The notes beneath the pieces were generated by a model. The model was not told where the DNA came from. It ran no database searches and saw only the letters and a program-made list of their open reading frames with translations. Of a stretch of DNA of 64,000 nucleotides, positions 24,035 to 50,090 are shown in pieces. The translations under genes and the position numbers were made by a program. The stretch lies in NCBI GenBank assembly GCA_965250285.1, contig OZ252299.1, positions 5,440,001-5,504,000 on the forward strand, given 5' to 3'. Position 1 is the stretch's first letter, and every line of letters begins with the position of its first letter. The DNA is from Myxococcota bacterium. Lineage in GTDB: Bacteria > Myxococcota_A > UBA9160 > UBA4427.

Positions 24035-24460
24035 ATGCTTCGGGCCTTCGGTCGATCTCTTCTTTGGCTGTTTGCCGCTATCGGTGTCGGCGCGGTTTCC
24101 CTGTCGGCGTACTCCGTCTCTGGCAGAGTTGTCTGCAGGCTCGAAGACCGCGTCTCTGCCCAACTCTTGCAACTGATGTCCGCCCTCGAGTTCTATCGGC
24201 TCGATAATGGTCGGTTTCCAACAACGGAGCAGGGCCTCGAAGCTTTGCTGTCGAGACCGGCGGCTGGTCCCCAGCCCGAATCGTACCCCGAAGGTGGGTA
24301 TCTCGGTGAACGTGCCTTGATATGTGACCCATGGGGCGAGCCAGTTCGTTACTCACACGAGAGCGACTCACTTGTGCTTGTTTCGATCGGTGGTCCGGAA
24401 TGCATATGCGAACACGCTACGCGGCCTAACAAGCCGTTGCAGCGGACTTGCTCCCGCTGA
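24035..24460 (+). CDS. cassette 1: GspG-like (T2SS pseudopilin C-terminal domain) protein
   Basis: ALEFYRLDNGRFPTTEQGLEAL...YPEGGYL...DPWG; reads into attC. Confidence 0.75.
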   Translation: MLRAFGRSLLWLFAAIGVGAVSLSAYSVSGRVVCRLEDRVSAQLLQLMSALEFYRLDNGRFPTTEQGLEALLSRPAAGPQPESYPEGGYLGERALICDPWGEPVRYSHESDSLVLVSIGGPECICEHATRPNKPLQRTCSR

Positions 24461-24475
24461 GGCGATATCGGGTCG

Positions 24476-24484
24476 TGGTAGAAT
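24476..24484 (+). promoter_or_regulatory. extended -10 motif TGnTAnnnT inside attC (first example; present in all 49 intact attC)
   Basis: TG, TA and the final T are invariant while the n positions vary across attC copies. Confidence 0.7.
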
Positions 24485-24602
24485 GTCGGCTACCCGAGGC
24501 GTTCAGCCGCTGCGAGCAAGGTCGCCGCAAGCCGCTGAACGCCGACCGTTAGGCAGCGTTCCAGTCAGAGTCATGGTCTTCGGTGCAGCCTGAGATGACG
24601 CA

Positions 24603-24818
24603 GTGACGAAGCGGAATCTGATCGCGATCGCTTCCGTCCTGTTCCCCGCTATGGCAGTTGCTGGCTGCGTCGATCTCGTACTTCCCATCGAGATCGTCGA
24701 TTTCGGTGCAGGAATCGCAGGTGACCGTCCTCTTGCGAAGTGGGTCCCTTACTTCGCCATCGCACTTGGCGGTACGTTCGGAAGCTGGGCGCTATGGAGC
24801 CGCCTGCCTCCCGACTAG
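24603..24818 (+). CDS. cassette 2: small membrane protein
   Basis: Only ORF between attC sites; hydrophobic. Confidence 0.5.
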   Translation: MTKRNLIAIASVLFPAMAVAGCVDLVLPIEIVDFGAGIAGDRPLAKWVPYFAIALGGTFGSWALWSRLPPD

Positions 24819-24990
24819 CTGACAGCTATTCGTGTCGCGAGGCTCCACGCTGCCTAACAAGCCGTTGCAGCGGACTTGCTACCGCTGAGGCGATATCGGG
24901 TCGTGGTAGAATGGCCGGCGTCCGAGGCGTTCAGTCGCTGCGAGCAAGGCCGCCGCAAGCCGCTGAACGCCGACCGTTAGGCGGCGTGCC

Positions 24991-25275
24991 GTGATCACGA
25001 GGTACTCGGTCGCAGCTCTGGCAGCCGTCGCTGTCACGGGCTCCGCGTTCTGGTTCGGCTCGTCGTTGCTCGACCGCGAAGCAGCGGCGCATTGCCCCAA
25101 GAACGACCTATACGAACTCTCGAAGCGCAGCCGATCGGAATGCCGAGTCGCCCATTCGCGCGACTGTAGTTCCTCCTGCGAGCTGGTCATGACCGATGTC
25201 TATGCGGCCGACTGCAGCAGCTCCATGTTCGTTGAGGTGTGCGTTCCGTCGAGCGAGCTTTCTGCGTTCCGATGA
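24991..25275 (+). CDS. cassette 3: small Cys-rich exported protein
   Basis: Fills the cassette; duplicated at 27909. Confidence 0.6.
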   Translation: MITRYSVAALAAVAVTGSAFWFGSSLLDREAAAHCPKNDLYELSKRSRSECRVAHSRDCSSSCELVMTDVYAADCSSSMFVEVCVPSSELSAFR

Positions 25276-25459
25276 GTTGCTCAAGCGAAATGGCGTGCCA
25301 GACGCCGCCTAACAAGCCGTTGCAGCGGACTTGCTGACGCTGAGGCGTTGTCGGGTCGTGATAGAATCACGGACATCCGAGGCATTCAGTCGCTGCGAGC
25401 AAGGCCGCCGCAAGCCGCTGAACGCCGACCGTTAGACCGCCAGAGCACAGGAGGCGCGC

Positions 25460-27038: not shown

Positions 27039-27320
27039 GTTAGGCCGCGTGGCACAAGGCCCTCTAGTTGCTGGGTGCCGATTCCTGCCCACCGCCTTCT
27101 CGAACCCGGCAGCTCGTTGCGAGCTCGCTAGCTAGTTGACCTGCTCGCTTCGCCCTTAGGTCACTCCCGACAGATCGCATGCGACGCATCGCCAAAGTGG
27201 CCACAACCGGCTCTCTGGGGCGAGCTTCGCCTTCGGTCTGCTCGATCCAACTCGACTGCCGAATCCCATCTTGGCAGGGGGTAGGGCGGTAGAGGGTCTG
27301 CTCTTCGCACGCGGTCTAAC
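27039..27320 (+). ncRNA. ORF-less structured cassette, copy 1 of 9
   Basis: Conserved 281-283 bp body, no conserved ORF, nested helices. Confidence 0.55.
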
Positions 27321-27442
27321 AAGCCGTTGCAGCGGACTTGCTACCGCTGAGGCGCTTTCGGTTCTTGGTAGAATCTCGGGCGTCCGAGGCGTTCAGCCGC
27401 TGCGAGCAAGGCCGCCGCAAGCCGCTGAACGCCGACCGTTAG

Positions 27443-27806
27443 ATGGCGGAGACGCGAGATAGGACGTTACAAGTTCAAGCTTGGCCAGAAGCCACGACGA
27501 AAGCGCCGGTTAGATTCCGGGCGTACGCGCATTCGTCGAGGTGGCGATCCGACGGCAGCAGGAAGAGAGCGGGGCGATCCGATTTCTCCCGAAGAGCGTT
27601 GGGTTCCGAGCTTCGACGACGTAATTGCAGCATTGGTCGTCATTTCGCTGATCACATTCTTCATTGCCGCGTTCTGTTCTCTTGGCCACTGTTCATGTGC
27701 GGGGCTGAGTGCTTACTCGAACTCTCGAGTGAGTCTCGTCACTCCGTTGCCCCTGCAGATTCGCCCGCCATCTAACAAGGCGTTGCAGCGGACTTGCTTA
27801 GGCTGA
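27443..27806 (+). CDS. cassette 6 (three identical copies): hypothetical, reading frame ambiguous
   Basis: An ATG frame (27443-27775) and an ATA-initiated TM-containing frame (27459-27806) are both open. Confidence 0.4.
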
Positions 27807-27908
27807 GGCGATATCGGGTCGTGGTAGACTGCCGGGTGTCCGAGGCATTCAGCCGCTGCGAGCTAGGTCGCCGCAAGCCGCTGAACGCCGACCGTTAGGC
27901 GGCGTGCC

Positions 27909-28193
27909 GTGATCACGAGGTACTCGGTCGCAGCTCTGGCAGCCGTCGCTGTCACGGGCTCCGCGTTCTGGTTCGGCTCGTCGTTGCTCGACCGCGAAGC
28001 AGCGGCGCATTGCCCCAAGAACGACCTATACGAACTCTCGAAGCGCAGCCGATCGGAATGCCGAGTCGCCCATTCGCGCGACTGTAGTTCCTCCTGCGAG
28101 CTGGTCATGACCGACGTCTATGCGGCCGACTGCAGCAGCTCCATGTTCGTTGAGGTGTGCGTTCCGTCGAGCGAGCTTTCTGCGTTCCGATGA
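27909..28193 (+). CDS. cassette 7: duplicate of cassette 3
   Basis: Identical protein; one synonymous difference seen. Confidence 0.6.
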   Translation: MITRYSVAALAAVAVTGSAFWFGSSLLDREAAAHCPKNDLYELSKRSRSECRVAHSRDCSSSCELVMTDVYAADCSSSMFVEVCVPSSELSAFR

Positions 28194-28368
28194 GTTGCTC
28201 AAGCGAAATGGCGTGCCAGACGCCGCCTAACAAGCCGTTGCAGCGGACTTGCTGACGCTGAGGCGTTGTCGGGTCGTGATAGAATCACGGACATCCGAGG
28301 CATTCAGTCGCTGCGAGCAAGGCCGCCGCAAGCCGCTGAACGCCGACCGTTAGGCAGCGGAAGCGGCA

Positions 28369-28710
28369 ATGACGCGTCGAACTCCGCTCCTCATCTTCGG
28401 AACCTTGGCATTCGGCATGCTGGTAGCGTGCTCGCCCGACGTATGGAGCGCACAAGAGCTCTCCGACTGGCACGCGCGAAACGCGGAGGGTTCGCCGCAC
28501 TACAGTCCGCTCTACTACACCGGTACCGACGACGACTACCACCACTTTAAGTGTCGCGCGATGGACACGTGGGTTGTAGTTCGCGTACCGCGGGACCAGA
28601 TCACGATTCCCGAGGTCCCGGCGTCACAAGATCCCGGTGCCGTGCCACGGCTGTACGCTGTCGACCCAGCGAATGACTATCGAATCCTCGAAGCTTCGGC
28701 AGGCCAGTAG
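28369..28710 (+). CDS. cassette 8: putative lipoprotein
   Basis: Lipobox LVAC. Confidence 0.7.
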   Translation: MTRRTPLLIFGTLAFGMLVACSPDVWSAQELSDWHARNAEGSPHYSPLYYTGTDDDYHHFKCRAMDTWVVVRVPRDQITIPEVPASQDPGAVPRLYAVDPANDYRILEASAGQ

Positions 28711-28862
28711 AGCGCACGCCGCTGCCTAACAAGCCGTTGCAGCGGACTTGCTGACGCTGAGGCGATATCGGGCCGTGGTAGAGTCACGGGCGTCCAAGGC
28801 ACTCAGTTGCTGCGAGCAAGGCCGCCGCAAGCCGCTGAACGCCGACCGTTAGGTGGCGAGAC

Positions 28863-29219
28863 TTGGAAGTTGACGACGTAACGACGCTCAATCGGCCCAC
28901 TGGCCCGGAAGAGCTCGCCCTCGTCGAGCAGTCCGGCTTTCGTCGTTGGCCGCCTCGACTGCCTGAGCAGCCGATCTTCTATCCAGTCACGAATGAAGCC
29001 TACGCCGTCGAAATCGCCAAGAACTGGAACGCCCGCGACGGCAAAGCCGGGTACGTAACCCGATTCAGCGTTCGGTCTAGTTTCATGAGCCAGTACGAGA
29101 TCCAAACTGTGGGCGCCAAGCATCACACAGAGTGGTGGGTGCCTGCCGACGAACTCGACGAGCTGAATGACAACATCGTCGGCACGATCGAAGTCATCCA
29201 GGCGTTCGATCCGAGCTGA
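28863..29219 (+). CDS. cassette 9: small protein of the family often labelled ADP-ribosylation/crystallin J1
   Basis: RPTGPEEL...WPPRLPEQPIFYPVTNEAYA...GYVTRF...EWWVPADEL. Confidence 0.8.
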   Translation: MEVDDVTTLNRPTGPEELALVEQSGFRRWPPRLPEQPIFYPVTNEAYAVEIAKNWNARDGKAGYVTRFSVRSSFMSQYEIQTVGAKHHTEWWVPADELDELNDNIVGTIEVIQAFDPS

Positions 29220-29353
29220 CGCGCTCGCCACCTAACAAGCCGTTGCAGCGGACTTGCTCCCGCTGAGGCGATATCGGGCCGTGGTAAACTGGCCGGCGTC
29301 CGAGGCATTCAGCCGCTGCGAGCCAGGTCGCCGCAAGCCGCTGAACGCCGACC

Positions 29354-29634
29354 GTTAGGCCGCGTGGCACAAGGCTCTCTAGTTGTTGGGTGCCGATTCC
29401 TGCCCACCGCCTTCCCGAATCGGGCAGCTCGTTGCGAGCTCTGGCGTTGGCTGATCTGCTTGCTTCGCCCTTAGGTCACTCCCAATAGATCGCATGTGAC
29501 GCATCGCCAAAGTGACCACAGCCGGCTCTCTCATGCGCGCTTCGCCTTCGGCCTGCTCATCCCACCCGAGAGCAGAATCGAGGCTTGGCAGGGGGTAGGA
29601 CGGCAGAGGGTCCGTCCTTCGCACGCGGTCTAAC
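29354..29634 (+). ncRNA. ORF-less structured cassette, copy 2
   Basis: Homologous to 27039-27320. Confidence 0.55.
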
Positions 29635-29796
29635 AAGCCGTTGCAGCGGACATCGTCCAGCTGAGGCGATATCGGCTCTGTTAGCTTCTTGGCAACGAAC
29701 CAAGTGCGTTCTGCGGAGCCGGTCAGCAGCTGGCCGATGCCGCTGAACGCCGACCGTTAGGCGGCGTTTCGTGCCAAGCACGGAGTTTCAGCGACC

Positions 29797-30084
29797 GTGA
29801 CCAGCTACTTGCGGCGTGGCCCAGGTGCCAAGAAAGCTGAGGCTCTCGGCCGTGCCGAGACCGCACTCCGTGATGCTATCTCTCGGGGCGATGCTTCTAA
29901 GGCTATCGCCAAGCTCGCTGATCGCGTCCGAGACGCGAAGCTTGGCTACCTCAAAGCGAGACTCTTCGAGGCCCGCGGCGACTTCAGTCGAGACGCCCCT
30001 TCCCAGCAGGTCTCCAATCTCGAGTCCGAGCAGGCCGCTTGGTCGACGCTCTCCGTCGACGACGTCATCGACCGCTATCGCTAA
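29797..30084 (+). CDS. cassette 11: hypothetical helical protein
   Basis: GGAG SD; fills the cassette. Confidence 0.65.
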   Translation: MTSYLRRGPGAKKAEALGRAETALRDAISRGDASKAIAKLADRVRDAKLGYLKARLFEARGDFSRDAPSQQVSNLESEQAAWSTLSVDDVIDRYR

Positions 30085-30242
30085 GGCTCGGGACTCCAAC
30101 GCCGCCTAACAAGCCGTTGCAGCGGACTTGCTACCGCTTGAGCCGATTTGGGTCGTGGTACCATGCCGGCAATCGATGGCGTCTCAGCAGGTTGTGCCAA
30201 ATCGGCGCAAGCCGCTGAACGCCGACCGTTAGGCGGCGTTAC

Positions 30243-30653
30243 ATGGACGATGTCGCGTACGTCCGACGGGTCATGTGGCTGCCTTCGTTCGTCCCGTTTG
30301 TGCTTGCCGCAATGGATGATCTTTCGAACTACTCCGTTGGTTCATACATCCAAAGTAGTCTCATGCTGGGAGCTGCGACCTATCCTGCCTTCGTTCTGAT
30401 CTCGCGGTACGCGTTTCGCGCCGACGGGCGGCGTGCCCATTGGGCGCTGTTGTTCGCTTCTCCCATCGCCTTTCCAGTCTTCTACGCGTCTGTGAATGGA
30501 ACGATCTGGTACTCTGAAGATGGCTGGGGCATAGGCCTGTATGTGTTTATGCTCTTCTATTCTCTCGTGCTCTGTATTCCACTCGGCTATGCATTCGCGC
30601 TCGTAGCATGGGCTGCCAGAAGACTCTGGCTCCGTCGCGACAACGCCGCCTAA
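30243..30653 (+). CDS. cassette 12: membrane protein, paralog of 46649
   Basis: MDDVAYVRRVMWLP; stop is the TAA of attC. Confidence 0.75.
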   Translation: MDDVAYVRRVMWLPSFVPFVLAAMDDLSNYSVGSYIQSSLMLGAATYPAFVLISRYAFRADGRRAHWALLFASPIAFPVFYASVNGTIWYSEDGWGIGLYVFMLFYSLVLCIPLGYAFALVAWAARRLWLRRDNAA

Positions 30654-30770
30654 CAAGCCGTTGCAGCGGACTTGCTAACGCTTGAGGCCAACCGGCTCGT
30701 GGTAGAATCTCGAAGTCCGAGGCGTTGTCAGTCGCTGTGCCAGATCGGCGCAAGCCGCTGAACGCCGACC

Positions 30771-31052
30771 GTTAGGCCGCGTGGCACAAGGCCCTCTAGT
30801 TGTTGGGTGCCGATTCCTGCCCACCGCCTTCTCGAATCGGGCAGCTCGTTGCGTGCTCGCCAGCTATCTGACCTGCTCGCTTCGCCCTTAGGTCACTCCC
30901 GACAGATCGCATTCGACGCATCGCCAAAGCGGCCACAACCGGCTCTCTGGGTCGAGCTTCGCCTTCGGTCTGCTGGATCCCACTCGACTGCCGAACTCCA
31001 GCTTGGCAGGGGGTAGGGCGGTAGAGGGTCTGCTCTTCGCACGCGGTCTAAC
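30771..31052 (+). ncRNA. ORF-less structured cassette, copy 3
   Basis: Homologous to 27039-27320. Confidence 0.55.
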
Positions 31053-31196
31053 AAGCCGTTGCAGCGGACTTGCTACCGCTGAGGCGATATCGGGTCGTGG
31101 TAGACTGATCAGCGTCCGAGGCGTTTAGTCGCTGCGAGCAAGGCCGCCGCAAGCCGCTGAACGCCGACCGTTAAGCGGCGAGCGCGGAGCAGACGC

Positions 31197-31586
31197 GTGT
31201 CGGCCACACGCAAACCGTATGCGGCAGAGTTCGATGGAGCGTTAGAGCTCTGGCACTCCGGCGACCCGGAGGCTGCTATCACGCAGCTGCAAGACCTGGC
31301 GGTCCGGTATCCGAACGAAGCCGCAATCCACGGCATGCTGGGCGGGTATCTCTACGACCACGGTGGCCTGCTCGAGGCCGAGCCACATGCTCGGGCAGCC
31401 GTGCGGCTGTCCCCACGGTCTCAGCTAGCCGCTCGGACCCTGTTTCACGTTCTTCACGATCTCGGTCGGCTCACGGATGCGATCGAAGAGCTCAAGCGCT
31501 TCAGGTCAGCCACCGAAAGTGACGAGCTTCGTCGCGAATGGTCGCGTCTCGTCCGAGCCGTCGAGGCCGAACTTGGCGAGCGGTGA
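31197..31586 (+). CDS. cassette 14: TPR protein
   Basis: AITQL...YPNEAAIHGMLG...ARAAVRLSP...LHDLGRLTDA. Confidence 0.75.
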   Translation: MSATRKPYAAEFDGALELWHSGDPEAAITQLQDLAVRYPNEAAIHGMLGGYLYDHGGLLEAEPHARAAVRLSPRSQLAARTLFHVLHDLGRLTDAIEELKRFRSATESDELRREWSRLVRAVEAELGER

Positions 31587-31721
31587 TTCGTCTCGCCGCC
31601 TAACAAGCCGTTGCAGCGGACTTGCTAACGCTGAGGTGATTTCGGGTCGTGGTAGACTGGTCGAAGTCTGAGGCGTTCAGCCGCTGCGAGCAAGGCCGCC
31701 GCAAGCCGCTGAACGCCGACC

Positions 31722-32002
31722 GTTAGGCCGCGTGGCACAAGGCCCTCTAGTTGTTGGGTGCCGATTCCTGCCCACCGCCTTCTCGAATCGAGCAGCTCGT
31801 TGCGAGCTCGGCAGCTAGCTGATTTGTTCGCTTCGCCCTTAGGTCACTCCCGACAGATCGCATGCGACGCATCGCCAAAGTGGCCACGGCCGGCTCTCTG
31901 GGGCGAGCTTCGCCTTCGGCCTGCTCATCCTACTTGAGTGCAGAACTCCAGCTTGGTAGAGGGTAGGGCGCCAGGGGGTCTGCTCTTCGCACGCGGTCTA
32001 AC
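31722..32002 (+). ncRNA. ORF-less structured cassette, copy 4
   Basis: Homologous to 27039-27320. Confidence 0.55.
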
Positions 32003-32146
32003 AAGCCGTTGCAGCGGACTTGCTACGGCTGAGGCGTTCTCGGTTCTTGGTAGAATCTCGGGCGTCCGAGGCGTTCAGCCGCTGCGAGCAAGGCCGCCGC
32101 AAGCCGCTGAACGCCGACCGTTAGGCAGCCGGAACGCCAAGCCAAG

Positions 32147-32647
32147 ATGAAACCCCTCGCCCGCCTTGGCTTCATCCTCCTCGGTGTGTACGGGACCCTG
32201 GCGTCGCTGCGAGGTGTCTCCTACTTCATCCGCACGGCGGCGGTCACCCCTCCGGCCGACTCAGGTCAGACGCTCTCTGCTCTCATCATCACCGCGAGCT
32301 TGTTCGATCTCGCGCCGCCGATTCTTCTCATCTGGTTCAGCAAGCGCCTCGCAGACTTCGCGTTTCCTTTCGATCAAGAGGCAAGCCTCGATGTTGGCGC
32401 CTCATCTTTGGTTTCCGCTGGCGTCTCTGTTCTCGGGGTCTACGTCGCGGCGATCGGTGTCTCGGGCTTGGTTGGTGCTGCGGTCGCTGCGGGTACTTCA
32501 GTGCGCTTCCTCGAGAACCCTGCCTTTCGCGAGGGGCTGTTCTCTGGCCTCGGCGAGTCCGTAGCGTTGGTGCTCATCGGCCTGGGCTTGTTCGTCTACG
32601 GTCCTCGGCTGGTCTCGGGCCGAGAGGGCAGAGCGCCGGCTGCCTAA
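32147..32647 (+). CDS. cassette 16: 4-TM membrane protein
   Basis: Hydrophobic; stop in attC. Confidence 0.75.
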   Translation: MKPLARLGFILLGVYGTLASLRGVSYFIRTAAVTPPADSGQTLSALIITASLFDLAPPILLIWFSKRLADFAFPFDQEASLDVGASSLVSAGVSVLGVYVAAIGVSGLVGAAVAAGTSVRFLENPAFREGLFSGLGESVALVLIGLGLFVYGPRLVSGREGRAPAA

Positions 32648-32782
32648 CAAGCCGTTGCAGCGGACTTGCTTACGCTGAGGCGATTTTGGTTCTTGCTAGA
32701 ATCTCGGGCGTCCGAGGCGTTCAGTCACTGCGAGCAAGGCCGCCGCAAGCCGCTGAACGCCGACCGTTAGCCAGCACACGAC

Positions 32783-33331
32783 ATGCGTTGCCAGATCTTC
32801 GTCTCTGTCCTGCTCCTGCTCGCAGCTTCAGGCTCGCGCGCTGAGGAGAACCAACCTGCTTCGAAGGACGAGTTCGGTTCGGTCGTAGTCGTCAGCGAAC
32901 GAATCGAAGCCGCGATCGCGGCGGGTGAGCTTCACCGGCAGACGAAGAACTTCGGTTGGGCCAATCCTGGCTGCAAGCTCCAGGGCTATCCGATTCTCGA
33001 GAGATCGCTCGTCCTCGACACCGAGGGGCAGATTCGGCTCTATGATCGCTCGCAGATCGTCTCGCATGGTGCGATTGAGCGTATCCGAAGCTTCTTTGAC
33101 GAGCGCGGTCGCCTGCGGATCGTCGAGCGGAAGCTCGGCAACACGATCGACCTGGTTAGAGTAAGCGAGTCCGGCAAGATTTTGCTCTCCCGGGTATCCC
33201 ATGACCGCGGCGAAACCTGGCATCAGTACTCCGCTGACTTCGACGACTGGTACATGAATCCGCGCACACCGAGCGAAGTCGAGGCTGAGTTCGCTGAATC
33301 AGAGCCGACGTGTGAGCAAGGTGCAGGCTAA
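32783..33331 (+). CDS. cassette 17: exported hypothetical protein
   Basis: Signal peptide; stop in attC. Confidence 0.75.
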   Translation: MRCQIFVSVLLLLAASGSRAEENQPASKDEFGSVVVVSERIEAAIAAGELHRQTKNFGWANPGCKLQGYPILERSLVLDTEGQIRLYDRSQIVSHGAIERIRSFFDERGRLRIVERKLGNTIDLVRVSESGKILLSRVSHDRGETWHQYSADFDDWYMNPRTPSEVEAEFAESEPTCEQGAG

Positions 33332-33464
33332 CAAGCCGTTGCAGCGGACTTGCTAACGCTGAGGCGATCTCGGGTCGTGGTAGAATCTCGGGTGTCCGAG
33401 GTGTTCAGTTGCTGCGAGCAAGGCCGCCGCAAGCCGCTGAACGCCGACCGTTAGGTGGCGAAGC

Positions 33465-33890
33465 GTGAAGCTGCTGCTCGCCATACTTGTTCCGGTCGTG
33501 CTCGGTTCTTCATTGGCGCTTAGCTGCGTTCCGGACCCGGTGCCTGTGTTGGTGTTCAACAACTCAGGCTCGCAGCTCTTACTCTTCGTCTACGACCGTG
33601 GCTACCGGCTTAGCCCGGGTGACTCTCAGCAGATTGATTTGTACGGCGATTTCAGCACCATATCTGTCTACCTTCCCCGCGGTCGATTCGAATACCTGGT
33701 CTTCTTCGATGAGCTCACGGTCGACTTTCAGAGGCTGATCGGCGGCGAGTACCGCATCCAGATCGAACCAGACCTCCGTGCATTCATCCTGGAGAAGCGC
33801 ACTCGTCCCCCTGTTGACACTGAGAAGATGGTTCAGCCTCCTGGGTTTCCTCTGGTTCCTAAGCTCGCAGAGGCTTGGTCTGCCACCTAA
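33465..33890 (+). CDS. cassette 18: putative lipoprotein
   Basis: ALSC lipobox-like; stop in attC. Confidence 0.7.
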   Translation: MKLLLAILVPVVLGSSLALSCVPDPVPVLVFNNSGSQLLLFVYDRGYRLSPGDSQQIDLYGDFSTISVYLPRGRFEYLVFFDELTVDFQRLIGGEYRIQIEPDLRAFILEKRTRPPVDTEKMVQPPGFPLVPKLAEAWSAT

Positions 33891-34008
33891 CAAGCCGTTG
33901 CAGCGGACTTGCTGACGCTGAGGCGATATCGGGTCGTGGTACCATGTCGGTTGTCAATGGCGTCTCGGCAGGCCGTGCCAGGTCGGCGCAAGCCGCTGAA
34001 CGCCGACC

Positions 34009-36018: not shown

Positions 36019-36135
36019 AAGCCGTTGCAGCGGACTTGCTACCGCTGGGGTGCTTTCGGTTCTTGGTAGAATCTCGGGTGTCCGAGGCGTTCAGTCGCTG
36101 CGAGCAAGGTCGCCGCAAGCCGCTGAACGCCGACC

Positions 36136-39772: not shown

Positions 39773-39905
39773 CAAGCCGTTGCAGCGGACTTGCTAACGC
39801 TGGTTCGATATCGGGTCATGGTAGACTGCCGGGTGTCCGAGGCGTTCAGTCGCTGCGAGCAAGGCCGCCGCAAGCCGCTGAACGCCGACCGTTAGGCGGC
39901 CGCGG

Positions 39906-40352
39906 GTGGGTAGCGAAGCCGATCAGATCGAGAAGATCCTTTCTCGCCGCAAGAATGCGCGCGCGAGGCTTTCGCTGTCCTACATGTCCGACACAAAGTG
40001 GGCTCGCGCGCTCACAGCGCTCGCCGAGAAGCACCCGGGCCTCCATTGCACATGGAAGCTGGTAGGCAACCCGGAGCCGTGTCCAGGCCATCTGCCGATC
40101 GAGCCCCCGTTGCGCCAGCAAAGCCACCTCGACGACGGCTGGCTGCTGGCGCCGTTCTTCTTACTCCCGAACTACAGCGATGTCGAATGGCTGGAGGTGC
40201 CAGCTCGAGCCCGTTGGCAGCCGCATCCGAAGCTAGAGCCCGTCACTTCTACTCAAGACATTCAGTCGATCGCCCAAACCCTCGAGGCCGTTGGCTCTCT
40301 CGAACTCGAGGCAACTGAGACGCACCTGCGGCTATACGGCTATCGCCCCTAG
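39906..40352 (+). CDS. cassette 31: hypothetical (DUF6678-like)
   Basis: SYMSDTKW...YSDVEWLE...LRLYGY. Confidence 0.65.
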   Translation: MGSEADQIEKILSRRKNARARLSLSYMSDTKWARALTALAEKHPGLHCTWKLVGNPEPCPGHLPIEPPLRQQSHLDDGWLLAPFFLLPNYSDVEWLEVPARARWQPHPKLEPVTSTQDIQSIAQTLEAVGSLELEATETHLRLYGYRP

Positions 40353-40528
40353 ACGCGCGCCGCCTAACAAGCCGTTGCAGCGGACTTGCTCACGCTGAGG
40401 CGTTGTCGGGTCGTGGTAGAGTCACGGGCATCCGAGGCGTTTAGTCGCTGCGAGCAAGGCCGCCGCAAGCCGCTGAACGCCGACCGTTAGGCGGCGCGGG
40501 TATCGCTGCAATCGCTAGCGTCACGGGG

Positions 40529-40894
40529 ATGCCGATCGGTAGGTCGCTCACTTATCCGGGCCGCGCAGTAGCCGCTTTCTTGGCCGTCTGGGGCATCGGG
40601 CTGGCCGTAGCATCAGCAGTCTCTCTCGTGCTTGGGCAGTTTCCTGCCTCGCTTGGCCTTGGCGGCGCGATCTCTGCTCTCGTAGTGACTTCCCTTGTGT
40701 CTGCCTACGCAATTCGGTCCGGCCTCGCTCGGCTAGCTCTCGCGTCGTACGCTGCTTGGTCGGTCCTGCTCTTCGGGCTGTTTTTCCATGCCGTCTATGA
40801 CCCTGGTCGTCCACAAGACGTGTTTGGCTATGCGTTTGCGGCTCTCTTTCTCGGCCTTCTGGGTCTCTATCTCGCGCGACAGCTGCGGCACTAG
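40529..40894 (+). CDS. cassette 32: 4-TM membrane protein
   Basis: Hydrophobic ORF filling the cassette. Confidence 0.7.
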   Translation: MPIGRSLTYPGRAVAAFLAVWGIGLAVASAVSLVLGQFPASLGLGGAISALVVTSLVSAYAIRSGLARLALASYAAWSVLLFGLFFHAVYDPGRPQDVFGYAFAALFLGLLGLYLARQLRH

Positions 40895-41035
40895 CAGGTT
40901 GTCGCGTCGCCGCCTAACAAGCCGTTGCAGCGGACTTGCTAACGCTGAGGCGATATCAGGTCGTGGTAGAATGGCGGGCGTCTGAGGCGCTCAGTCGCTG
41001 CGAGCAAGGCCGCCGCAAGCCGCTGAACGCCGACC

Positions 41036-41374
41036 GTTAGATGGCGGAGACGCGAGATAGGACGTTACAAGTTCAAGCTTGGCCAGAAGCCACGACGAAA
41101 GCGCCGGTTAGATTCCGGGCGTACGCGCATTCGTCGAGGTGGCGATCCGACGGCAGCAGGAAGAGAGCGGGGCGATCCGATTTCTCCCGAAGAGCGTTGG
41201 GTTCCGAGCTTCGACGACGTAATTGCAGCATTGGTCGTCATTTCGCTGATCACATTCTTCATTGCCGCGTTCTGTTCTCTTGGCCACTGTTCATGTGCGG
41301 GGCTGAGTGCTTACTCGAACTCTCGAGTGAGTCTCGTCACTCCGTTGCCCCTGCAGATTCGCCCGCCATCTAAC
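41036..41374 (+). mobile_element. cassette 33: third copy of cassette 6
   Basis: Sequence matches 27438-27776. Confidence 0.9.
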
Positions 41375-41516
41375 AAGGCGTTGCAGCGGACTTGCTTAGG
41401 CTGAGGCGATATCGGGTCGTGGTAGACTGCCGGGTGTCCGAGGCATTCAGCCGCTGCGAGCTAGGTCGCCGCAAGCCGCTGAACGCCGACCGTTAAGTGG
41501 CACGATCGGCGGCCAG

Positions 41517-41987
41517 GTGGTGACTCTCGAACTCCGGTGGTCCAAGACGAAGCTCTATCTGTATCTGGCCGGCTCTTGCGCTTTCGTAGCTGGCAGCATT
41601 CTGGCCGATCTCCAGTGGTGGGAACGCGCGCTCGCTGCTGTCATTGGTGTCGTCGGCTCGGTGGCTCTTGCGCTGCGCCTTCAGCGGCAGACCCAACCGG
41701 TCTTGGTCATCTCGCCGGAAGGAGTTCAAGACTCCCGACTGACGCCGTCCCTCATGCCGTGGTCAACGATCGAGGCGGTGCAGTTCGAACCCAAGTACTT
41801 CCGCGGTGGTGCGATCCTCGTTGACCTGCACGCCGGTCTTCCAACTCCGACGGTCAACGCCAGCCTCTTCACGACACGAGGTCACTCGCCGACAGCTCAA
41901 GAAGGGCGTGTCAGGCTGCCGCTGTACGATCTGTCCTTCGACTCAGGCGCGGTGCGTCAGGCTCTCGAAGCCACGCGTGCCACCTAA
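41517..41987 (+). CDS. cassette 34: 2-TM protein with PH-like domain
   Basis: PVLVISPEGVQD...MPWSTIEAV. Confidence 0.7.
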   Translation: MVTLELRWSKTKLYLYLAGSCAFVAGSILADLQWWERALAAVIGVVGSVALALRLQRQTQPVLVISPEGVQDSRLTPSLMPWSTIEAVQFEPKYFRGGAILVDLHAGLPTPTVNASLFTTRGHSPTAQEGRVRLPLYDLSFDSGAVRQALEATRAT

Positions 41988-42121
41988 CAAGCCGTTGCAG
42001 CGGACTTGCTAACGCTGAGGCGATATCGGGTCGTGGTAGACTGGCCGGTGTCCGAGGCGTTCAGCCGCAGCGAGCAAGGCCGCCGCAAGCCGCTGAACGC
42101 CGACCGTTAGGTGGCGGGGGA

Positions 42122-42583
42122 ATGGAGCCGGCGACAGACGACGACCTGCGCCCAGTACTCCCCGGAGAGCGCTGGACGCCACCTACTAACTTGGCAGCAA
42201 GACTCTTCTTCACCCTCCTTCGCCGCATACATGACCAACAAGACTGGGTCTGGCGGGGCGACGAGCCACACGTCAGTCTGGTGTTTCTGACTGCCATCCC
42301 CCAGGTTCTAAACGTGGCGACCCTCTTGGAATTCTTCATCCCACGTGAGAACGCCATCAGGCTAGTCGGCCCCGAACTCTCAAGCGCTATCGGCGTCTGC
42401 GCTGTTTCGCTGCCTGTTCTTCTTGAGGTCTGGTGGCTTCGCGAGCCTGGGCGACTCCACGTGGTGATCTGGGAAGCAGATACCTATCGATACTTGTCGG
42501 GCCCTATTGGTACTGCCCTGGTGGTCGCATACGTAGTGGGTTCGTTTCTTCTCTTCGGTCTAGTCGCCACGCCCGCCACCTAA
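42122..42583 (+). CDS. cassette 35: membrane protein
   Basis: Stop in attC. Confidence 0.7.
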   Translation: MEPATDDDLRPVLPGERWTPPTNLAARLFFTLLRRIHDQQDWVWRGDEPHVSLVFLTAIPQVLNVATLLEFFIPRENAIRLVGPELSSAIGVCAVSLPVLLEVWWLREPGRLHVVIWEADTYRYLSGPIGTALVVAYVVGSFLLFGLVATPAT

Positions 42584-42723
42584 CAAGCCGTTGCAGCGGA
42601 CGTGGCAACGCTTATGCCATGCCGGTCGTGGTAGGCTTGCGGAGTCCCAGGCGTCCCGAGCCGCGGTGCAAGGTTGCGCCACGCCGCTGAACGCCGACCG
42701 TTAGGCAGCATGGTCGTGTCTCC

Positions 42724-43077
42724 GTGGACGTGATCTCCGTCGAAGAATGGCAGCTCACCTCATTCTTCGAGGTGCTGCCGAGCTACCCCGATCCCGACTC
42801 ACCGTGGCCGTACACGGAAGTGGTCTATGAGGTCACCCGTGGTGACCTCTCGATGACATGCGCCATCTGCCCCGCGTACCGAGATGTCCGTCTCATTGTC
42901 CGTCACGGTGAAGCCGTCTCATACGAGTTGAACGCCACCCAGGTCCAGGATCTTTCCTACACGAAGGACGCTTCGGGCGAATCGTTGCGAATTGCGACCA
43001 GCGATTCTGAGTACATCGACCTGCGCCTCAACCCAGGTATCTCGATCAAGCACACAGTCGACCACCAGTTCGACTAG
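42724..43077 (+). CDS. cassette 36: hypothetical protein
   Basis: Fills the cassette. Confidence 0.7.
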   Translation: MDVISVEEWQLTSFFEVLPSYPDPDSPWPYTEVVYEVTRGDLSMTCAICPAYRDVRLIVRHGEAVSYELNATQVQDLSYTKDASGESLRIATSDSEYIDLRLNPGISIKHTVDHQFD

Positions 43078-43228
43078 TGCGCATGCTGCCTAACAAGCCG
43101 TTGCAGCGGACTTGCTAACGCTTGGGCGATATCGGGTCGTGGTAGACTGCCGGTTGTCCTAGGCATTCAGTCGCTGCGAGCCAGGTCGCCGCAAGCCGCT
43201 GAACGCCGACCGTTAGGCAGCATCTCCC

Positions 43229-43690
43229 GTGCCGGAAGTTCGCGTCGTTATCCCGGACGAAACCTACGGAATCGTCAAGTTTCGCCAAGACGATCTCCCT
43301 GGTGTTGCCGTCATCAACAAGTCGTTGGTTGGATTCGCGTCGCGGGAGGTCTTTCGGTGGCATCTCTCGATCATGGTCCACTTCGAAGAGATCATCGACA
43401 ACGGTATGCCTGCTCAGGCTGACGTTGGTCTCGTAGATCGATTCGGCGATCAGCTAGATCAGGAACTCAAAGTCGACTCTGAGCGTCCGAATGCCCTCTT
43501 CCTGGGGCGTGTGACCTGGAACGAGACTCGTGAGCTCATCTATCGGGTATACGACCCGGAAGTCACGAACGACCTTCTCCAGCGAATCGTGAGCGATCGA
43601 ACGCATCCTCGAGAGTTCGACTATCGCATTGACGATGATCCTGACTGGGGCCTTGCAGAGTGGCATCTGAATGCGTGCGCTCCCGCTTAA
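43229..43690 (+). CDS. cassette 37: DUF695-like protein
   Basis: NGMP...LFLGRVTWNETRELIYRVYDP...DDPDW. Confidence 0.75.
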   Translation: MPEVRVVIPDETYGIVKFRQDDLPGVAVINKSLVGFASREVFRWHLSIMVHFEEIIDNGMPAQADVGLVDRFGDQLDQELKVDSERPNALFLGRVTWNETRELIYRVYDPEVTNDLLQRIVSDRTHPREFDYRIDDDPDWGLAEWHLNACAPA

Positions 43691-43826
43691 TGCCCCGATG
43701 CTGCCTAACAAGCCGTTGCAGCGGACTTGCTTACGCTGAGGCGATCTAGGGCCGTGGTAGACTGACCGGCGTCCGAGGCGTTCAGCCACTGCGAGCAAGG
43801 CCGCCGCAAGCCGCTGAACGCCGACC

Positions 43827-44107
43827 GTTAGGCCGCGTGGCACAAGGCTCTCTAGTTGTTGGGTGCTGAATCCTGCCCACCGCCTTCTCGAGTCGGGCAG
43901 CTCGTTGCGAGCTCTCCAGCTAGCTGACCCGTTCGCTTCGCCCTTAGGTCATCCCCGACAGATCGAGCGCGACGCATCGCCAAAGTGGCCACAACCGGCT
44001 CTCTGGGTCGAACTTCGCCTTCGGCCTGCTCATCCCACTCCACTGCCGAACTCCAGCTTGGCAGGGGGTAGGGCGCCAGAGGGTCTGCTCTTCGCACGCG
44101 GTCTAAC
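43827..44107 (+). ncRNA. ORF-less structured cassette, copy 8
   Basis: Homologous to 27039-27320. Confidence 0.55.
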
Positions 44108-44251
44108 AAGCCGTTGCAGCGGACATCGTCCAGCTGAGGCGATATCGGCTCTGGTAGTTTCTTGGCAACGAACCAAGTGCGTTCAGCGAGACCGGTCAGC
44201 AGCTGGCCGATGCCGCTGAACGCCGACCGTTAGACAGCCGGAGCGGCGCCT

Positions 44252-44632
44252 GTGACGCTCGATCAAGCGCTGATCGCGAGCCTCGGAATCGGAATGCTTG
44301 CGTGCATTGCCCTCGTTCTCAGGGGCTATATCGAGGTTCGCATTCGATTCAGTGGCTTTCTCAGGTCCGAGCGCCCGGAACTATGGTCGCAGCTCGCCCC
44401 TTCTCACAACGACTCCGAAGAGTTCGTCACCCTGGGCATTTTGAGCTTCGATCCCACGCCAGCAATTTCGCGTTTTCGACGCGGGGGCTTTCGCGAGCTC
44501 GCCGACACCGAGCTTTCTGCGCGCTGTGCGCATGCGAACCGCGCGGAGCGCATCGGACTTCTCTCGTGGTTCGCCCTGCTCGCGTGGACGTTGGTCGTGT
44601 TCGGAGTCATCATCGCCTTGCGTGCCGCGTGA
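44252..44632 (+). CDS. cassette 39: 2-TM protein
   Basis: GGAG SD; fills the cassette. Confidence 0.7.
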   Translation: MTLDQALIASLGIGMLACIALVLRGYIEVRIRFSGFLRSERPELWSQLAPSHNDSEEFVTLGILSFDPTPAISRFRRGGFRELADTELSARCAHANRAERIGLLSWFALLAWTLVVFGVIIALRAA

Positions 44633-44801
44633 ACCGGCTGTCTAACAAGGCGTTGCAGCGGACACCGAACAGCTGGATCGAATCGACCGTGTTAGCCTCT
44701 TGGCATCAACCCAGGTGCTTCATCGGCCCGGTCAGCGCCGTCCGGTGCCGCTGAACGCCGATCCGTTAGGCGGCGTTCGAGTTGACTCGAGACGTACTCG
44801 A

Positions 44802-45053
44802 ATGACAAGGTCGCCGTGGTTGACAGGCTTGGCCCTTGGCATCGTGATCGGGGCCATCGCGGCCGGCTTCGCTGTGTTCGCGGCTCTCGATCACAACCCG
44901 CAGGGCGAGTTCCAGCGCGGTGGCTCGGTCCAGGTCGGTCCTCTTCTCTTGATAGGTGGTAGCTGGTTCGGACTCGTGGGCGCCGTTGTGTGGCTTGTGT
45001 TGGGCTCGGCTCTGGCGATTCTCCGACGAAGGCGCGAACACCACGCCGCCTAA
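44802..45053 (+). CDS. cassette 40: small 2-TM protein
   Basis: ALDHNPQGEF between TM helices; stop in attC. Confidence 0.65.
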   Translation: MTRSPWLTGLALGIVIGAIAAGFAVFAALDHNPQGEFQRGGSVQVGPLLLIGGSWFGLVGAVVWLVLGSALAILRRRREHHAA

Positions 45054-45225
45054 CAAGCCGTTGCAGCGGACGTGGCAACGCCTTCGCTCTATCGCTGGTG
45101 GTAGAATTTCCACATCCCAGGCTTCGGCCGTCGTGGTGCAAGGTTGTGCCACGCCGCTGAACGCCGAACCGTTAGGCGGCGGAACTGTGTGCTGAAGCGT
45201 GCCGCGGGAATGACGGAGCCCTTCG

Positions 45226-45519
45226 ATGAAGCGAACAGCCTACTCGCCCGAACTGCAGTCGGAACTCGCACATGGTAAGTATACGAAGTGGGCAGCTGAT
45301 CTGACTGAAGCCGAGCTTTACAACCTGCTATGGCTCGTAGGCGAGTTCGGCGTTCGCACGCCAGAAGACAGCGAGGGGCCGGTGATCGGCGCGAGTCACC
45401 GACGCGCCGGCGCTCGCTGGGGCATAGTTCAGTATGTCCGCTGCCGGCGAGCGGTGTCGTTCCAGCGCGCCATACGTCGTTACAATCCAGACGGCTCGTT
45501 GAGAAAGCCGAGTGCCTAG
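45226..45519 (+). CDS. cassette 41: duplicate of cassette 28
   Basis: Identical protein. Confidence 0.65.
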   Translation: MKRTAYSPELQSELAHGKYTKWAADLTEAELYNLLWLVGEFGVRTPEDSEGPVIGASHRRAGARWGIVQYVRCRRAVSFQRAIRRYNPDGSLRKPSA

Positions 45520-45676
45520 CTCGTCCGCCGCCTAACAAGCCGTTGCAGCGGACTTGCTAACGCTGAGGCGATATCGGGTCGTGGTAGACTGGCCGGTGTC
45601 CGAGGCGTTCAGCCGCAGCGCGCAAGGCCGCCGCAAGCCGCTGAACGCCGACCGTTAGGCCGCAACTCGAGCTTGA

Positions 45677-46111
45677 ATGATGCGATGGTCGGTAGATACG
45701 GCGGACGCGCACCGTCTTCTTTGGGCGGTCCTTGATCACTTTGAAGGCAATGCGCTTGTCTCGTTCGAGGGCAGGCTTTCCGACCTCGGGCTCTCGCCCA
45801 TTTCTGGTGCCCGATCAGACGAGTCTTCGGTACTTCGCAGGCACACACAGCTCCCAGTTCAAGACTTCGTAGTTCTACCCGTGAACCGTGAGACGATTCG
45901 CGACGTGAAGCGCTGTCTCTCAGACGTCGAGCTCATCGACGAGTCCGGGCCGGTCATTCACGTCCAGGTCCAATCGGGCGACTCCCTAGTTCTCGGGGCG
46001 TACGACAATTTCGATCCCGAGTGCGTCGTGGTCTGGCCCCCTACGCCAGAGGCGTTGCTTCAAGGGCTCCTCGAGGCCGGCGCCCTCCGCTCGTACAACG
46101 TTGCGGCCTAA
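45677..46111 (+). CDS. cassette 42: hypothetical protein
   Basis: VSFEGRL...HVQVQ...LGAYDNFDPEC. Confidence 0.75.
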   Translation: MMRWSVDTADAHRLLWAVLDHFEGNALVSFEGRLSDLGLSPISGARSDESSVLRRHTQLPVQDFVVLPVNRETIRDVKRCLSDVELIDESGPVIHVQVQSGDSLVLGAYDNFDPECVVVWPPTPEALLQGLLEAGALRSYNVAA

Positions 46112-46229
46112 CAAGCCGTTGCAGCGGACTTGCTACCGCTGAGGCGATATCGGTCCGTGGTAGCATGGCGGGCATCCGAGGCGTTCCGTGACTGCGAGCA
46201 AGGCCGCCGCAAGCCGCTGAACGCCGACC

Positions 46230-46512
46230 GTTAGGCCGCGTGGCACAAGGCCCTCTAGTTGTTGGGTGCCGATTCCTGCCCACCGCCTTCTCGAGTCGGG
46301 CAGCTCGTTGCGAGCTCTCCAGCTAGCTGACCCGTTCGCTTCGCCCTTAGGTCATCCGCGACAGATCGAGCGCGACGCATCGCCAAAGTGCCCACAACCG
46401 GCTCTCTGGGGCGACCTTCGCCTTCGGCCTGCTCTCATCCCACTCGACTGCCGAACTCCAGCTTGGCAGGGGGTAGGGCGCCAGAGGGTCTGTTCTTCGC
46501 ACGCGGTCTAAC
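46230..46512 (+). ncRNA. ORF-less structured cassette, copy 9
   Basis: Homologous to 27039-27320. Confidence 0.55.
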
Positions 46513-46648
46513 AAGCCGTTGCAGCGGACATCGTCCAGCTGAGGCGACATCGGCTTTGGTAGCTTGTTGGCATCGAACTCTGTGCGTTCAGCGAGAGCGG
46601 TCAGCAGCTGGCCGATGCCGCTGAACGCCGACCGTTAGGCGGCGTTGC

Positions 46649-47746: not shown

Positions 47747-48259
47747 ATGCCGGACCCGACAGACACGCTGATGATCCTCGTAGAGGCCGCTGCCGCCGTA
47801 GCGGGTTTCTCGGGCGTAGTGGTCGTCTTCGGTCGCCGTTCGGCTGGCGCCTGGTCCGATCTCGAGCGCACTCGCTTGTTCAATCTTCTCTTCACGAGCT
47901 TCACAGTTCTCTTCTCATCGCTCGGAGCGCTCGTCCTACTTCATGCAGAGCTGAGCGATTCTACGACCTGGCGAATCGGGAGCATTAGCTGGTCCGTTTT
48001 GTCGACTTGGCAGATCGCATCGGTCGCACGAGCCTACTCCTCCCTTTCGCGCAGTGATCCCAATCGCCCACACGTAGCCATTCCGGTAGTTCTTCTCGGG
48101 TTGACGGCTGGTCTTGTGGTTCTCAATCTGTACAACGCCTTTGTAGGCACGCCTGAATTCTGGCGTTTTCTTGCAGCGCTAGTCTGGCTTCTGGCGCTCG
48201 CCTGGTACTCGTTCGCACAACTTCTTCTGGTAGCCAGCCGAGGCGAGCAGGCCGCCTAA
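47747..48259 (+). CDS. cassette 46: membrane protein, AGFSG family
   Basis: EAAAAVAGFSGVVVVFGRR. Confidence 0.75.
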   Translation: MPDPTDTLMILVEAAAAVAGFSGVVVVFGRRSAGAWSDLERTRLFNLLFTSFTVLFSSLGALVLLHAELSDSTTWRIGSISWSVLSTWQIASVARAYSSLSRSDPNRPHVAIPVVLLGLTAGLVVLNLYNAFVGTPEFWRFLAALVWLLALAWYSFAQLLLVASRGEQAA

Positions 48260-48390
48260 CAAGCCGTTGCAGCGGACGTGGCAACGCTGTGCCGATATCG
48301 CGCGTGGTAGAATGTCAGCATCACAGGCTTCGGCCGGCGCGGTGCAAGGTTGTGCCACGCCGCTGAACGTCGACCGTTAGGCGGCGCGAG

Positions 48391-48879
48391 TTGCGAGCCT
48401 CTTCGATCCATACCGCCGTGGTTCTCTCAGCCCTCATAGGCTGCGCAACAACCGATCTCGCTGCGATCCCCTCGGAAGAGTGTCACTACTTACTGCCGGC
48501 ATTCTTTGGCGAACAGGACGAGTTTCGCGCGATCCGTCAGGGCGACGACTTTCATGCCGTTCAGGTACCACCCGTCGGGCCGGACGGTGAGTCGCCCGAC
48601 CGCCGCCGCTTCGCCGAGCTAGTGACAGACGTCGATTCTCACTGGTACCGCATCGACGACACCGCTTACGCTTGGTTCGGCGAAGGGCCAGCTCTGCGCT
48701 TTCCCTATTCTGGCTATCTAGCTCGGGTGCGGGAGATCTGTTCCGATTGCGAGGTCGGCGACTCGATCATGCATCCGGCCCCCGGCCTGGAGGCGGAGTG
48801 CATCGCAGTCGACGCTGAGCCGATATCGCTGCCGGACGGGCTTCGATTCCAAGATATCGACCCTGCACACTTCAAGTAG
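48391..48879 (+). CDS. cassette 47: putative lipoprotein
   Basis: LIGC lipobox. Confidence 0.65.
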   Translation: MRASSIHTAVVLSALIGCATTDLAAIPSEECHYLLPAFFGEQDEFRAIRQGDDFHAVQVPPVGPDGESPDRRRFAELVTDVDSHWYRIDDTAYAWFGEGPALRFPYSGYLARVREICSDCEVGDSIMHPAPGLEAECIAVDAEPISLPDGLRFQDIDPAHFK

Positions 48880-49045
48880 TCCGCACACGCTCACTTCGCG
48901 CGCCGCCTAACAAGCCGTTGCAGCGGACTTGCTAACGCTTGAGCCGTATCGGGGCGTGGTAGAATTGCGAAGTCCGAGGCGTTCAGTCGCTGCGAGCAAG
49001 GCCGCCGCAAGCCGCTGAACGCCGACCGTTAGGCCGCGAGAAGCT

Positions 49046-49297
49046 GTGCAGATGCACATCGTCGCATTCGCTGCGTTCGCTGCGGCTTCGGCGGTCTTCC
49101 TCGTCAAGATCGTTCCGCGGCTACTTGTCGATGATCCTCATCAGCCGTGGGCGCTGAGCCTCATGGTTGTGCCCGCCTATCGCCGATACTTCGCGATCTG
49201 TCGAGAGAATCGCGAGTCGCCAATGTGGGCACTCGTTAGCCTTACCCTCTTCGCTGTGTCTGCGGCGGCCGCCGTGGTTGCGGTTCGCTTCGCTTAG
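49046..49297 (+). CDS. cassette 48: small membrane protein
   Basis: Fills the cassette. Confidence 0.6.
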   Translation: MQMHIVAFAAFAAASAVFLVKIVPRLLVDDPHQPWALSLMVVPAYRRYFAICRENRESPMWALVSLTLFAVSAAAAVVAVRFA

Positions 49298-49444
49298 CCG
49301 CTCGCGGCCTAACAAGCCGTTGCAGCGGACTTGCTACCGCTGAGGCGATATCGGGCCGTGGTAGAGTGACGGGTGTCTGGGGCGTTCAGCTGTTGCGAGC
49401 AAGGCCGCCGCAAGCCGCTGAACGCCGAACGTTAGGCGGCGGGA

Positions 49445-49948
49445 TTGCAGGGCCAGCTTTCACTTGAGGCAATTGCGGAGATCTCAATCGCCCTCGCCGG
49501 GTTCTCCGGTCTGATTGCCATGGTCAGAAGTGGCCCCGTCCACGACTGGCACCCGCGGGTTCGACTCGCGTTCTGGATTAGCCTCAACTGGAGTATTGCA
49601 GCGGTGGCCCTGAGCCTGCTCCCGTCGTTGCTAATCACTTTCGGCCCATCAAGCTGGGTACTTCTAAACGGCGTAGCGAGCATCGTTCTTGTTGCTGGAC
49701 TGGCGTTGATGCTCTGCGCGCATCTTCATCTGAATCGCCAAGGATCACCAACGCAGAACCCGTGGCATTGGGTGGCGAACATCTCCGTCATTGCCGTCGG
49801 TGCGGTCGGAACCCTGTCGGCTCTGCTTGGCGCTGGCGACGGCGCGAGCTTCGAGTCGTTCAGATTCGGGGTCATCTCTTGCCTACTGGCTGCGTTGCCG
49901 GGCTTCTTGGCGAGCTTCCGAGTTCGAAGTCCCTCGCCCGCCGCCTAA
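49445..49948 (+). CDS. cassette 49: membrane protein, AGFSG family
   Basis: EISIALAGFSGLIA. Confidence 0.75.
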   Translation: MQGQLSLEAIAEISIALAGFSGLIAMVRSGPVHDWHPRVRLAFWISLNWSIAAVALSLLPSLLITFGPSSWVLLNGVASIVLVAGLALMLCAHLHLNRQGSPTQNPWHWVANISVIAVGAVGTLSALLGAGDGASFESFRFGVISCLLAALPGFLASFRVRSPSPAA

Positions 49949-50090
49949 CAAGCCGTTGCAGCGGACGTGGCAACGCTGTGCCGATATCGACCGTGGTAGA
50001 CTGGCGGAGTCCCAGGCGTTCTGAGCCGCGGTGCAAGGTCGTGCCACGCCGCTGAACGCCGAACCGTTGGACGTCGTGAAGAGGAGCTCC

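Follow-up and report, generated by a model that had tools for sequence, protein, structure and literature searches.

Extended -10 promoter motifs in the attC sites of a Myxococcota chromosomal integron

How are the distal cassettes of a large integron array expressed? This question is raised by a 64,000-nucleotide (nt) stretch of a Myxococcota bacterium genome (contig OZ252299.1, positions 5,440,001 to 5,504,000, or G000:C1:5440001-5504000; hereafter the window), in which sequence analysis reveals a complete chromosomal integron with an intI gene, an attI site and an array of attC sites. The host genome is a single contig of 6.25 Mb. In the standard model, cassettes are promoterless and are expressed from the promoter Pc at levels that fall with distance (PMC8876359). 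A sequence-only reading of the window had proposed that each attC carries a forward-facing local promoter, namely an extended -10 motif, TGnTAnnnT. At the level of sequence, this proposal is supported by the host's own use of the motif, its retention in decayed sites, its strand bias in related genomes and a sister attC family with a -35/-10 pair. We consider it likely that TGnTAnnnT serves these long attC sites as a sigma70 extended -10 promoter, from which the next cassette is transcribed.

To locate attC sites without using the motif, we searched for a pattern consisting of R'' TAAC, the left arm GTTGCAGCG, the right arm GCTGAACG and GTT, which yielded 49 intact sites from 24424 to 50072. 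A structure-based detector placed all 49 on the plus strand and none on the minus strand, with 1 false match in 0.93 Mb of resampled sequence. Judging from this detector and from predicted folds, the sites have the anatomy of attC (R'', L'', L' and R' boxes, an extrahelical base and a bottom-strand hairpin), although 10 of 47 unique sites have an L'/L'' pairing probability under 0.2, against a median of 0.92. All 49 carry TGnTAnnnT on the top strand, its last T lying 63-69 nt 5' of the crossover, which narrows the earlier estimate of about 60-75 nt. The 12 hexamers previously listed all occur in the array. The base after TG does take all four values, but it is G in 42 of 49 sites. When the sites are aligned, the five motif positions are 100% invariant; the n at -13 is conserved at 86%, and positions -10, -9 and -8 at 90%, 76% and 51%. 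Few other columns around the motif region are invariant. The attC families, described as otherwise dissimilar, are not independent: both arms are near-identical, and identity between members of different families is still about 68-73%. Throughout the array region there are 51 plus-strand and 2 minus-strand matches to the motif, versus 8.3 expected per strand in Markov-resampled sequence (maximum 19 of 100), and the bottom strand of the attC centres has none. The proposed array span, 24424 to 50072, is correct for intact sites, but the array itself continues, with decayed relics that run past the end of the window.

The motif closely matches the promoters of the host. We called 5106 host genes by means of a codon-based script, to which the motif gave no input, and took the gaps upstream of 1840 codirectional genes, leaving out integron regions. 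In these gaps, TGnTAnnnT occurs 131 times in sense and 4 times in antisense orientation, while the control patterns TGnTAnnnV (55/59) and TGnT[CG]nnnT (199/237) show no such excess. A variant of the motif that is free of stop codons still gives 36/1, and stop-codon bias therefore does not explain the sense excess. Among motifs no more than 40 nt from a start, 66 have the start codon 6-10 nt after the last T, 3 have it at 11-15 nt and 0 at 0-5 nt. Leaderless mRNAs would be expected to give such a peak, which places the transcription start (+1); genome-wide, many host genes are apparently leaderless. Among 61 tRNA and tmRNA calls, 5 have the motif 7-11 nt upstream, versus 2 in antisense. The sigma70 extended -10 consensus is TGnTATAAT, and, as in such promoters, the attC motif has a fixed TG, TA and final T, a free inner hexamer and no -35. 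Unlike the consensus, its hexamer follows the usage of a GC-rich host (TAG or TAC) and the element doubles as part of a recombination substrate. In the host RpoD, the segment of region 2.4/3.0 is preserved as RIPVHMIETINK, with no difference from solved RpoD chains, which is weak evidence given that the segment is near-universal; TG is read by H455 and E458 of this region, to whose numbering the segment presumably maps. The RpoD clusters nearest to that of the host are labelled Thermodesulfobacteriota, Acidobacteriota and Planctomycetota. The resemblance to a sigma70 extended -10 element that had been pointed out thus extends to strand specificity, host usage and spacing, with TGn directly before TAnnnT. 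As judged by these patterns, TGnTAnnnT in attC is the host's own -10 element.

The distal attC sites have lost their recombination cores and have mostly kept the promoter element. A hidden Markov model (HMM) in which the nine motif columns were randomised found 20 plus-strand relics beyond 50.1 kb (18 in the window, 2 beyond). With one relic from a second attC cluster described below, and excluding one weak minus-strand match, the set numbers 21. AAC survives in 1 of these and GTT in 2, counts that are lowered by construction, since the tail is where intact sites stop; the comparison of the motif with controls is unaffected. In a test that allowed the motif and the controls the same tolerance of register, all five motif bases were present in 15/21 relics. 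Same-shaped control patterns elsewhere in the site are kept in 388 of 2199 cases (18%), those with at least three A/T bases in 47 of 470 (10%), and the highest single control position reaches at most 12/21. The six relics without the exact motif comprise two of a -35/-10 family, one with CG for TG, one with a broken hexamer and two with nothing recognisable. In the tail as a whole, TGnTAnnnT occurs 17 times on the plus strand and 0 times on the minus strand (2.9 expected), each time with an open reading frame (ORF) of 64-264 amino acids following it. From its sequence, the tail, which ends at G000:C1:5509713, looks like a domesticated array end.

The two relics of the -35/-10 family (Table 1) belong to a sister attC family that is intact in related genomes and metagenomes, where several of the relatives' attC carry TTGACC-18-CATACT. 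The host favours the 18-nt spacing of this type of promoter (18 sense versus 2 antisense), whereas off-spacing controls give 3/5 and 2/4.

The motif was also sought in related genomes, as the sequence-only reading had suggested. Matches to the first attC were obtained in 13 of 40 relatives. Our own detector found 41 attC in 20 regions; 32 carry the motif on the top strand and 0 on the bottom strand, counts that are not independent, as the genomes are kin. A further 108 non-intact HMM matches in relatives include 59 with the motif, 11 with VGnTAnnnT, 6 with the -35/-10 form and 6 of another family, again with 0 on the bottom strand. A metagenome scan that used only the left arm gave 125 stretches, and 78 listed loci were analysed, yielding 100 unique attC. 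Among these loci, the motif is on the top strand in 44 of 55 attC of at least 120 nt (0 on the bottom strand, 1.9 expected), in 1 of 13 of 90-119 nt and in 0 of 32 shorter ones. Many short attC without the motif share the same arms as motif-bearing long attC. In families of 165- and 115-nt attC, the motif is off-centre. An exact pattern of arms plus motif occurs in 6/301 genomes of a phylum sample, all of the same order, and had 0 matches in viral contigs.

As had been proposed, each gene lies behind the attC of its upstream neighbour: the motif is 5' of the G/TT crossover in all 49 sites and therefore moves together with the upstream cassette. That genes become re-paired with other upstream hexamers, as also anticipated, is seen directly in duplicated cassettes. 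Three cassettes occur in 2-3 near-identical copies (bodies 99.7-100% identical) that have kept their own attC (98-100%) behind differing upstream attC (68-91%), and the upstream hexamers differ in most pairs. Past cassette movement is therefore implied. The sequence matched three sequencing runs of one study, none of them recorded as RNA; their contig joints fall in repeated attC ends and are uninformative on shuffling.

Downstream of the motif, the predicted leader has further features. In predicted folds of 48 clusters of attC sequences, the L' arm pairs with a segment just 3' of the predicted +1 in 45. The mean folding z-scores are -1.93 for the top strand, -1.23 for the bottom strand (p=3.5e-4) and -0.20 for the upstream arm. 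The hairpin has no U tail and is followed by GACCGTTAGG. On the bottom strand, this hairpin may, according to the fold models, compete with the recombinogenic fold. A Shine-Dalgarno (SD)-like duplex of -3.5 kcal/mol or lower with the genome's anti-SD sequence precedes the ORF in 21 of 37 full-length single-ORF cassettes, mostly as AGG(C/T)GG just after the crossover. The corresponding figures are 69% for host genes, whose caller favours SD sites, and 23% inside genes. The ORF starts at +13 to +15 in 14 of the 37.

A number of results weigh against a promoter function. No -35 at 17 nt is conserved in the main attC families (48 sequence clusters). The G at -13 is present in 85% of these clusters versus 22% of host promoters; given this excess and the shared ancestry of the attC sites, part of the motif's conservation reflects descent. 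The host gene calls come from a crude, purpose-made caller. Among relics, only the register-tolerant test was positive. Column by column, the motif had no advantage (76/105 versus 328/483 core positions, p=0.42), which we attribute to slips of register next to the masked block. The exact motif is missing in 6 of 21. Relics show no clear retention of the leader hairpin (mean z -0.75 vs -0.21), and among the 37 cassette ORFs there are 16 with no SD-like site. Of the non-intact attC in relatives, only 59 of 108 keep the motif; another 26 are truncated or show no recognisable element. Finally, 28 of 80 loci around relatives of the integrase in other phyla gave 70 attC, in which the motif is at chance level (2/53 of those of at least 90 nt). 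We thus reject the motif as a universal attribute of integrons. By the distribution seen in these genomes, the trait is confined to a long-attC lineage and does not extend to integrons in general.

Three alternative explanations were weighed. In the first, the promoter is real but weak or repressed, or chiefly makes a short structured attC RNA, so that downstream cassettes are largely silent or conditionally expressed. The conserved hairpin just 3' of the predicted +1, the lack of a conserved -35, the ORFs without SD-like sites and nine near-copies of an ORF-less cassette behind such promoters fit this idea. However, GACCGTTAGG and not a U run comes after the hairpin, the start codons are clustered at the distance from AGG(C/T)GG that suits an SD site, and in relics the motif persists before ORFs while the hairpin weakens; we regard this explanation as improbable. 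Inheritance without function, in which one ancestral attC with a chance motif spread by recent copying or homogenisation, seems to us very unlikely. The restriction of the exact arm-plus-motif pattern to one order, the near-identity of the arms and the conservation of G at -13 and -10 would be expected from it, but five A/T-rich positions are fixed amid drifting neighbours, retention of the other A/T bases in relics is only 57%, and the pattern of fixed and free positions equals that of host promoters. It is also very unlikely that the motif bases are kept for recombination, as an unpaired A/T-rich patch that aids cruciform extrusion or folding or as a site for IntI or a host factor: they do lie in the variable terminal structure, which is not bound by the integrase but whose sequence can affect folding and recombination (PMC5027507), and are largely unpaired in predicted bottom-strand folds, but the motif outlasts AAC and GTT in relics, is absent from all 32 of the shortest attC, many with the same arms, is substituted by a -35/-10 pair in the sister family and is off-centre in the 165- and 115-nt sites. 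The motif is real and is under selection independent of recombination.

If the attC motif is a promoter, sigma70 polymerase would bind TGnTAnnnT in the attC centre and start transcription 6-8 nt after the hexamer, a position suggested by the leaderless spacing in the host. The leader, of about 70 nt, would open with the predicted hairpin, of which the L' arm forms a part, and then run over the G/TT point to the SD-like AGG(C/T)GG at the 5' end of the next cassette, with read-through into its ORF. Shuffling might then tune expression, possibly in graded strength, via the neighbour rather than via distance from Pc, and distal cassettes could become fixed genes with an attC-derived promoter, i.e., be domesticated. 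On balance, we favour the broader idea that some chromosomal integrons depart from the textbook logic, in that their attC is a complete expression module (promoter, 5' stem-loop and ribosome-binding site at the crossover), that the whole array is expressed, that shuffling swaps promoters and that decay of the cores around a kept promoter is a route to permanent host genes.

The locus resembles sedentary chromosomal integrons such as that of V. cholerae with its VCR sites: it has intI, attI, a long array of one-gene cassettes with related attC of about 130 nt, a G/TT crossover and a bottom-strand hairpin with extrahelical bases. Unlike in standard integrons of this type, a host-type promoter motif is present in every intact attC and intI faces the array. 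In Vibrio DAT722, a promoter overlapping one attC drives the next cassette, as supported by qPCR (Michael and Labbate 2010, PMC2945992). That promoter has its -35 in attC and its -10 in cassette 21 and is unique in its array, whereas here the whole element is inside every attC. Promoter-bearing gene-less cassettes have been described as mobile, shufflable promoters, and one transcription start lies inside the attC of cassette F2, where transcription may, in the authors' view, be spurious (Blanco et al. 2024, PMC11014356). ORF-less Treponema cassettes with promoters are summarised in PMC8876359. In the gene-less cassettes, the promoter resides in special cassettes (PMC11014356), whereas here it is a conserved part of the recombination site. 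The cmlA, qacE, ereA, qnrVC and toxin-antitoxin cassettes have their own promoters, and their expression is independent of Pc; these promoters lie in the 5' untranslated region of the cassette's own gene and move with it (PMC8876359), whereas the candidate promoters here move with the upstream cassette. Full-text searches of a collection that lacks most subscription journals turned up no account of a promoter that is conserved within the attC sites of an entire array, and the excerpts of PMC5963079, 10.64898/2026.03.17.712381 and 10.1101/2025.06.18.660453 contain nothing on attC-internal promoters. A promoter as a general attC property is apparently undescribed in print, while isolated attC-overlapping promoters are already known.

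In the standard view, distal cassettes are a silent, low-cost memory that is activated by a move next to Pc. If attC sites of this lineage are promoters, arrays would be expressed libraries in which the order of cassettes takes effect via neighbours, genes could be expressed from circular intermediates and from arrays that lack an integrase, and the relic tail would show how captured genes are domesticated. The finding offers a direct handle on the open question of large-array expression.

Table 1. Coordinates of the integron features (positions in the window)
Feature	Position	Strand	Remarks
intI integron integrase	22777..23781	+	intact, 334 aa; TIGR02249 integrase_gron 439 bits (cut-off 265); PF00589 and PF13495
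Candidate Pc -10, CGnTAnnnT class	23939..23947	+	between intI and attI; sole nGnTAnnnT match in 23781-24000
attI core region	23980..23996	+	G/TT crossover at 23990/23991
49 intact attC sites, 129-135 nt	24424..50072	+	separate cassettes of mostly unknown function
Extended -10 motif of first attC	24476..24484	+	TGGTAGAAT; pattern match
Motif starts, other 48 attC	24904, 25359, 26967, 27366, 27822, 28277, 28776, 29282, 29679, 30156, 30700, 31098, 31650, 32048, 32694, 33378, 33937, 34336, 35101, 35665, 36064, 36462, 36893, 37467, 37922, 38320, 38803, 39302, 39819, 40414, 40964, 41420, 42034, 42629, 43140, 43755, 44152, 44690, 45099, 45582, 46158, 46557, 47127, 47652, 48305, 48957, 49359, 49994	+	
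Predicted 5' leader, first attC	24491..24550	+	about 60 nt, predicted +1 to crossover; hairpin
Example of crossover and SD-like AGGCGG	24976..24993	+	6 nt 5' of cassette start codon
~280-nt cassette, nine diverged copies	27040..46514	+	no consistent ORF; starts 27040, 29355, 30772, 31723, 34010, 35739, 36137, 43828, 46231
Tail of decayed attC relics before ORFs	50660..64000, on to about window +69700 (G000:C1:5509713)	+	masked HMM
Relic of other attC family	50702..50731	+	TTGATC-18 nt-CATACT (-35/-10 type) replacing extended -10; read directly
Second -35/-10-family relic	57541..57570	+	TTGACC-18 nt-GATACT; found by masked HMM
Exact motif in tail relics	51416, 52342, 52921, 54064, 54603, 55824, 56380, 58796, 59590, 60153, 61987, 62535, 63087	+	

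We now note properties of the remaining features. The intI gene is the only PF13495 match in the whole genome. It shares its direction of transcription with the array, which it faces, and Pc therefore cannot sit inside intI in the opposite orientation, as it does in class 1. The motif class of the candidate Pc -10, CGnTAnnnT, occurs upstream of host genes 135 times in sense versus 13 times in antisense orientation; by its location, this element would drive cassette 1 only. At attI, GTTAGGC at 23990 and the next bases read directly as the reverse complement of the cassette 1 end at its R''. A second cluster, with 5 intact attC and 1 relic, lies at G000:C1:109237-114100. All six carry TGnTAnnnT, and since PF13495 finds no other integrase in the genome, the cluster resembles a CALIN (a cluster of attC sites lacking an integrase).

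Pfam matches were obtained for 4 of 32 array ORFs submitted, and an Rfam search of the window gave no match. The nine copies of the ~280-nt cassette are about 87-91% identical to one copy; on its sequence, this cassette could be a non-coding RNA or a spacer cassette. Looking for a structured RNA in it, we found a double-sided change in 0 of 83 predicted pairs, and the cassette was not found in 60 relatives. A 1.49-kb cassette at 25437-26916 has two ORFs (205 and 273 aa) with no Pfam match, whereas the other cassettes are short and single-ORF.

Two further attC groups were seen at other loci. In long attC near other integrases (L031, L033 and L079), an uncontrolled observation is that a -10-like YAnAnT hexamer recurs at the apex of the hairpin, on the bottom strand and pointing back into the upstream cassette. 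A family of ~105-nt attC (L130, L131, L149, L150, L192 and L202) keeps a top-strand TAACAT without the canonical TGn, and is possibly another promoter-bearing family.

The relic tail contains ~20 kb of former cassettes, with ORFs for a methyltransferase, MoaF-like, MAPEG, GNAT, DUF2007 and DUF7684 proteins. A single contig from run X1, which may be the source sample, agrees with the tail sequence without a difference. Tail ORFs near 50091, 50819, 52432, 58273 and 60241 (50031-60741) have, by eye, similar N-termini and no Pfam match, and may form one paralogous cassette family.

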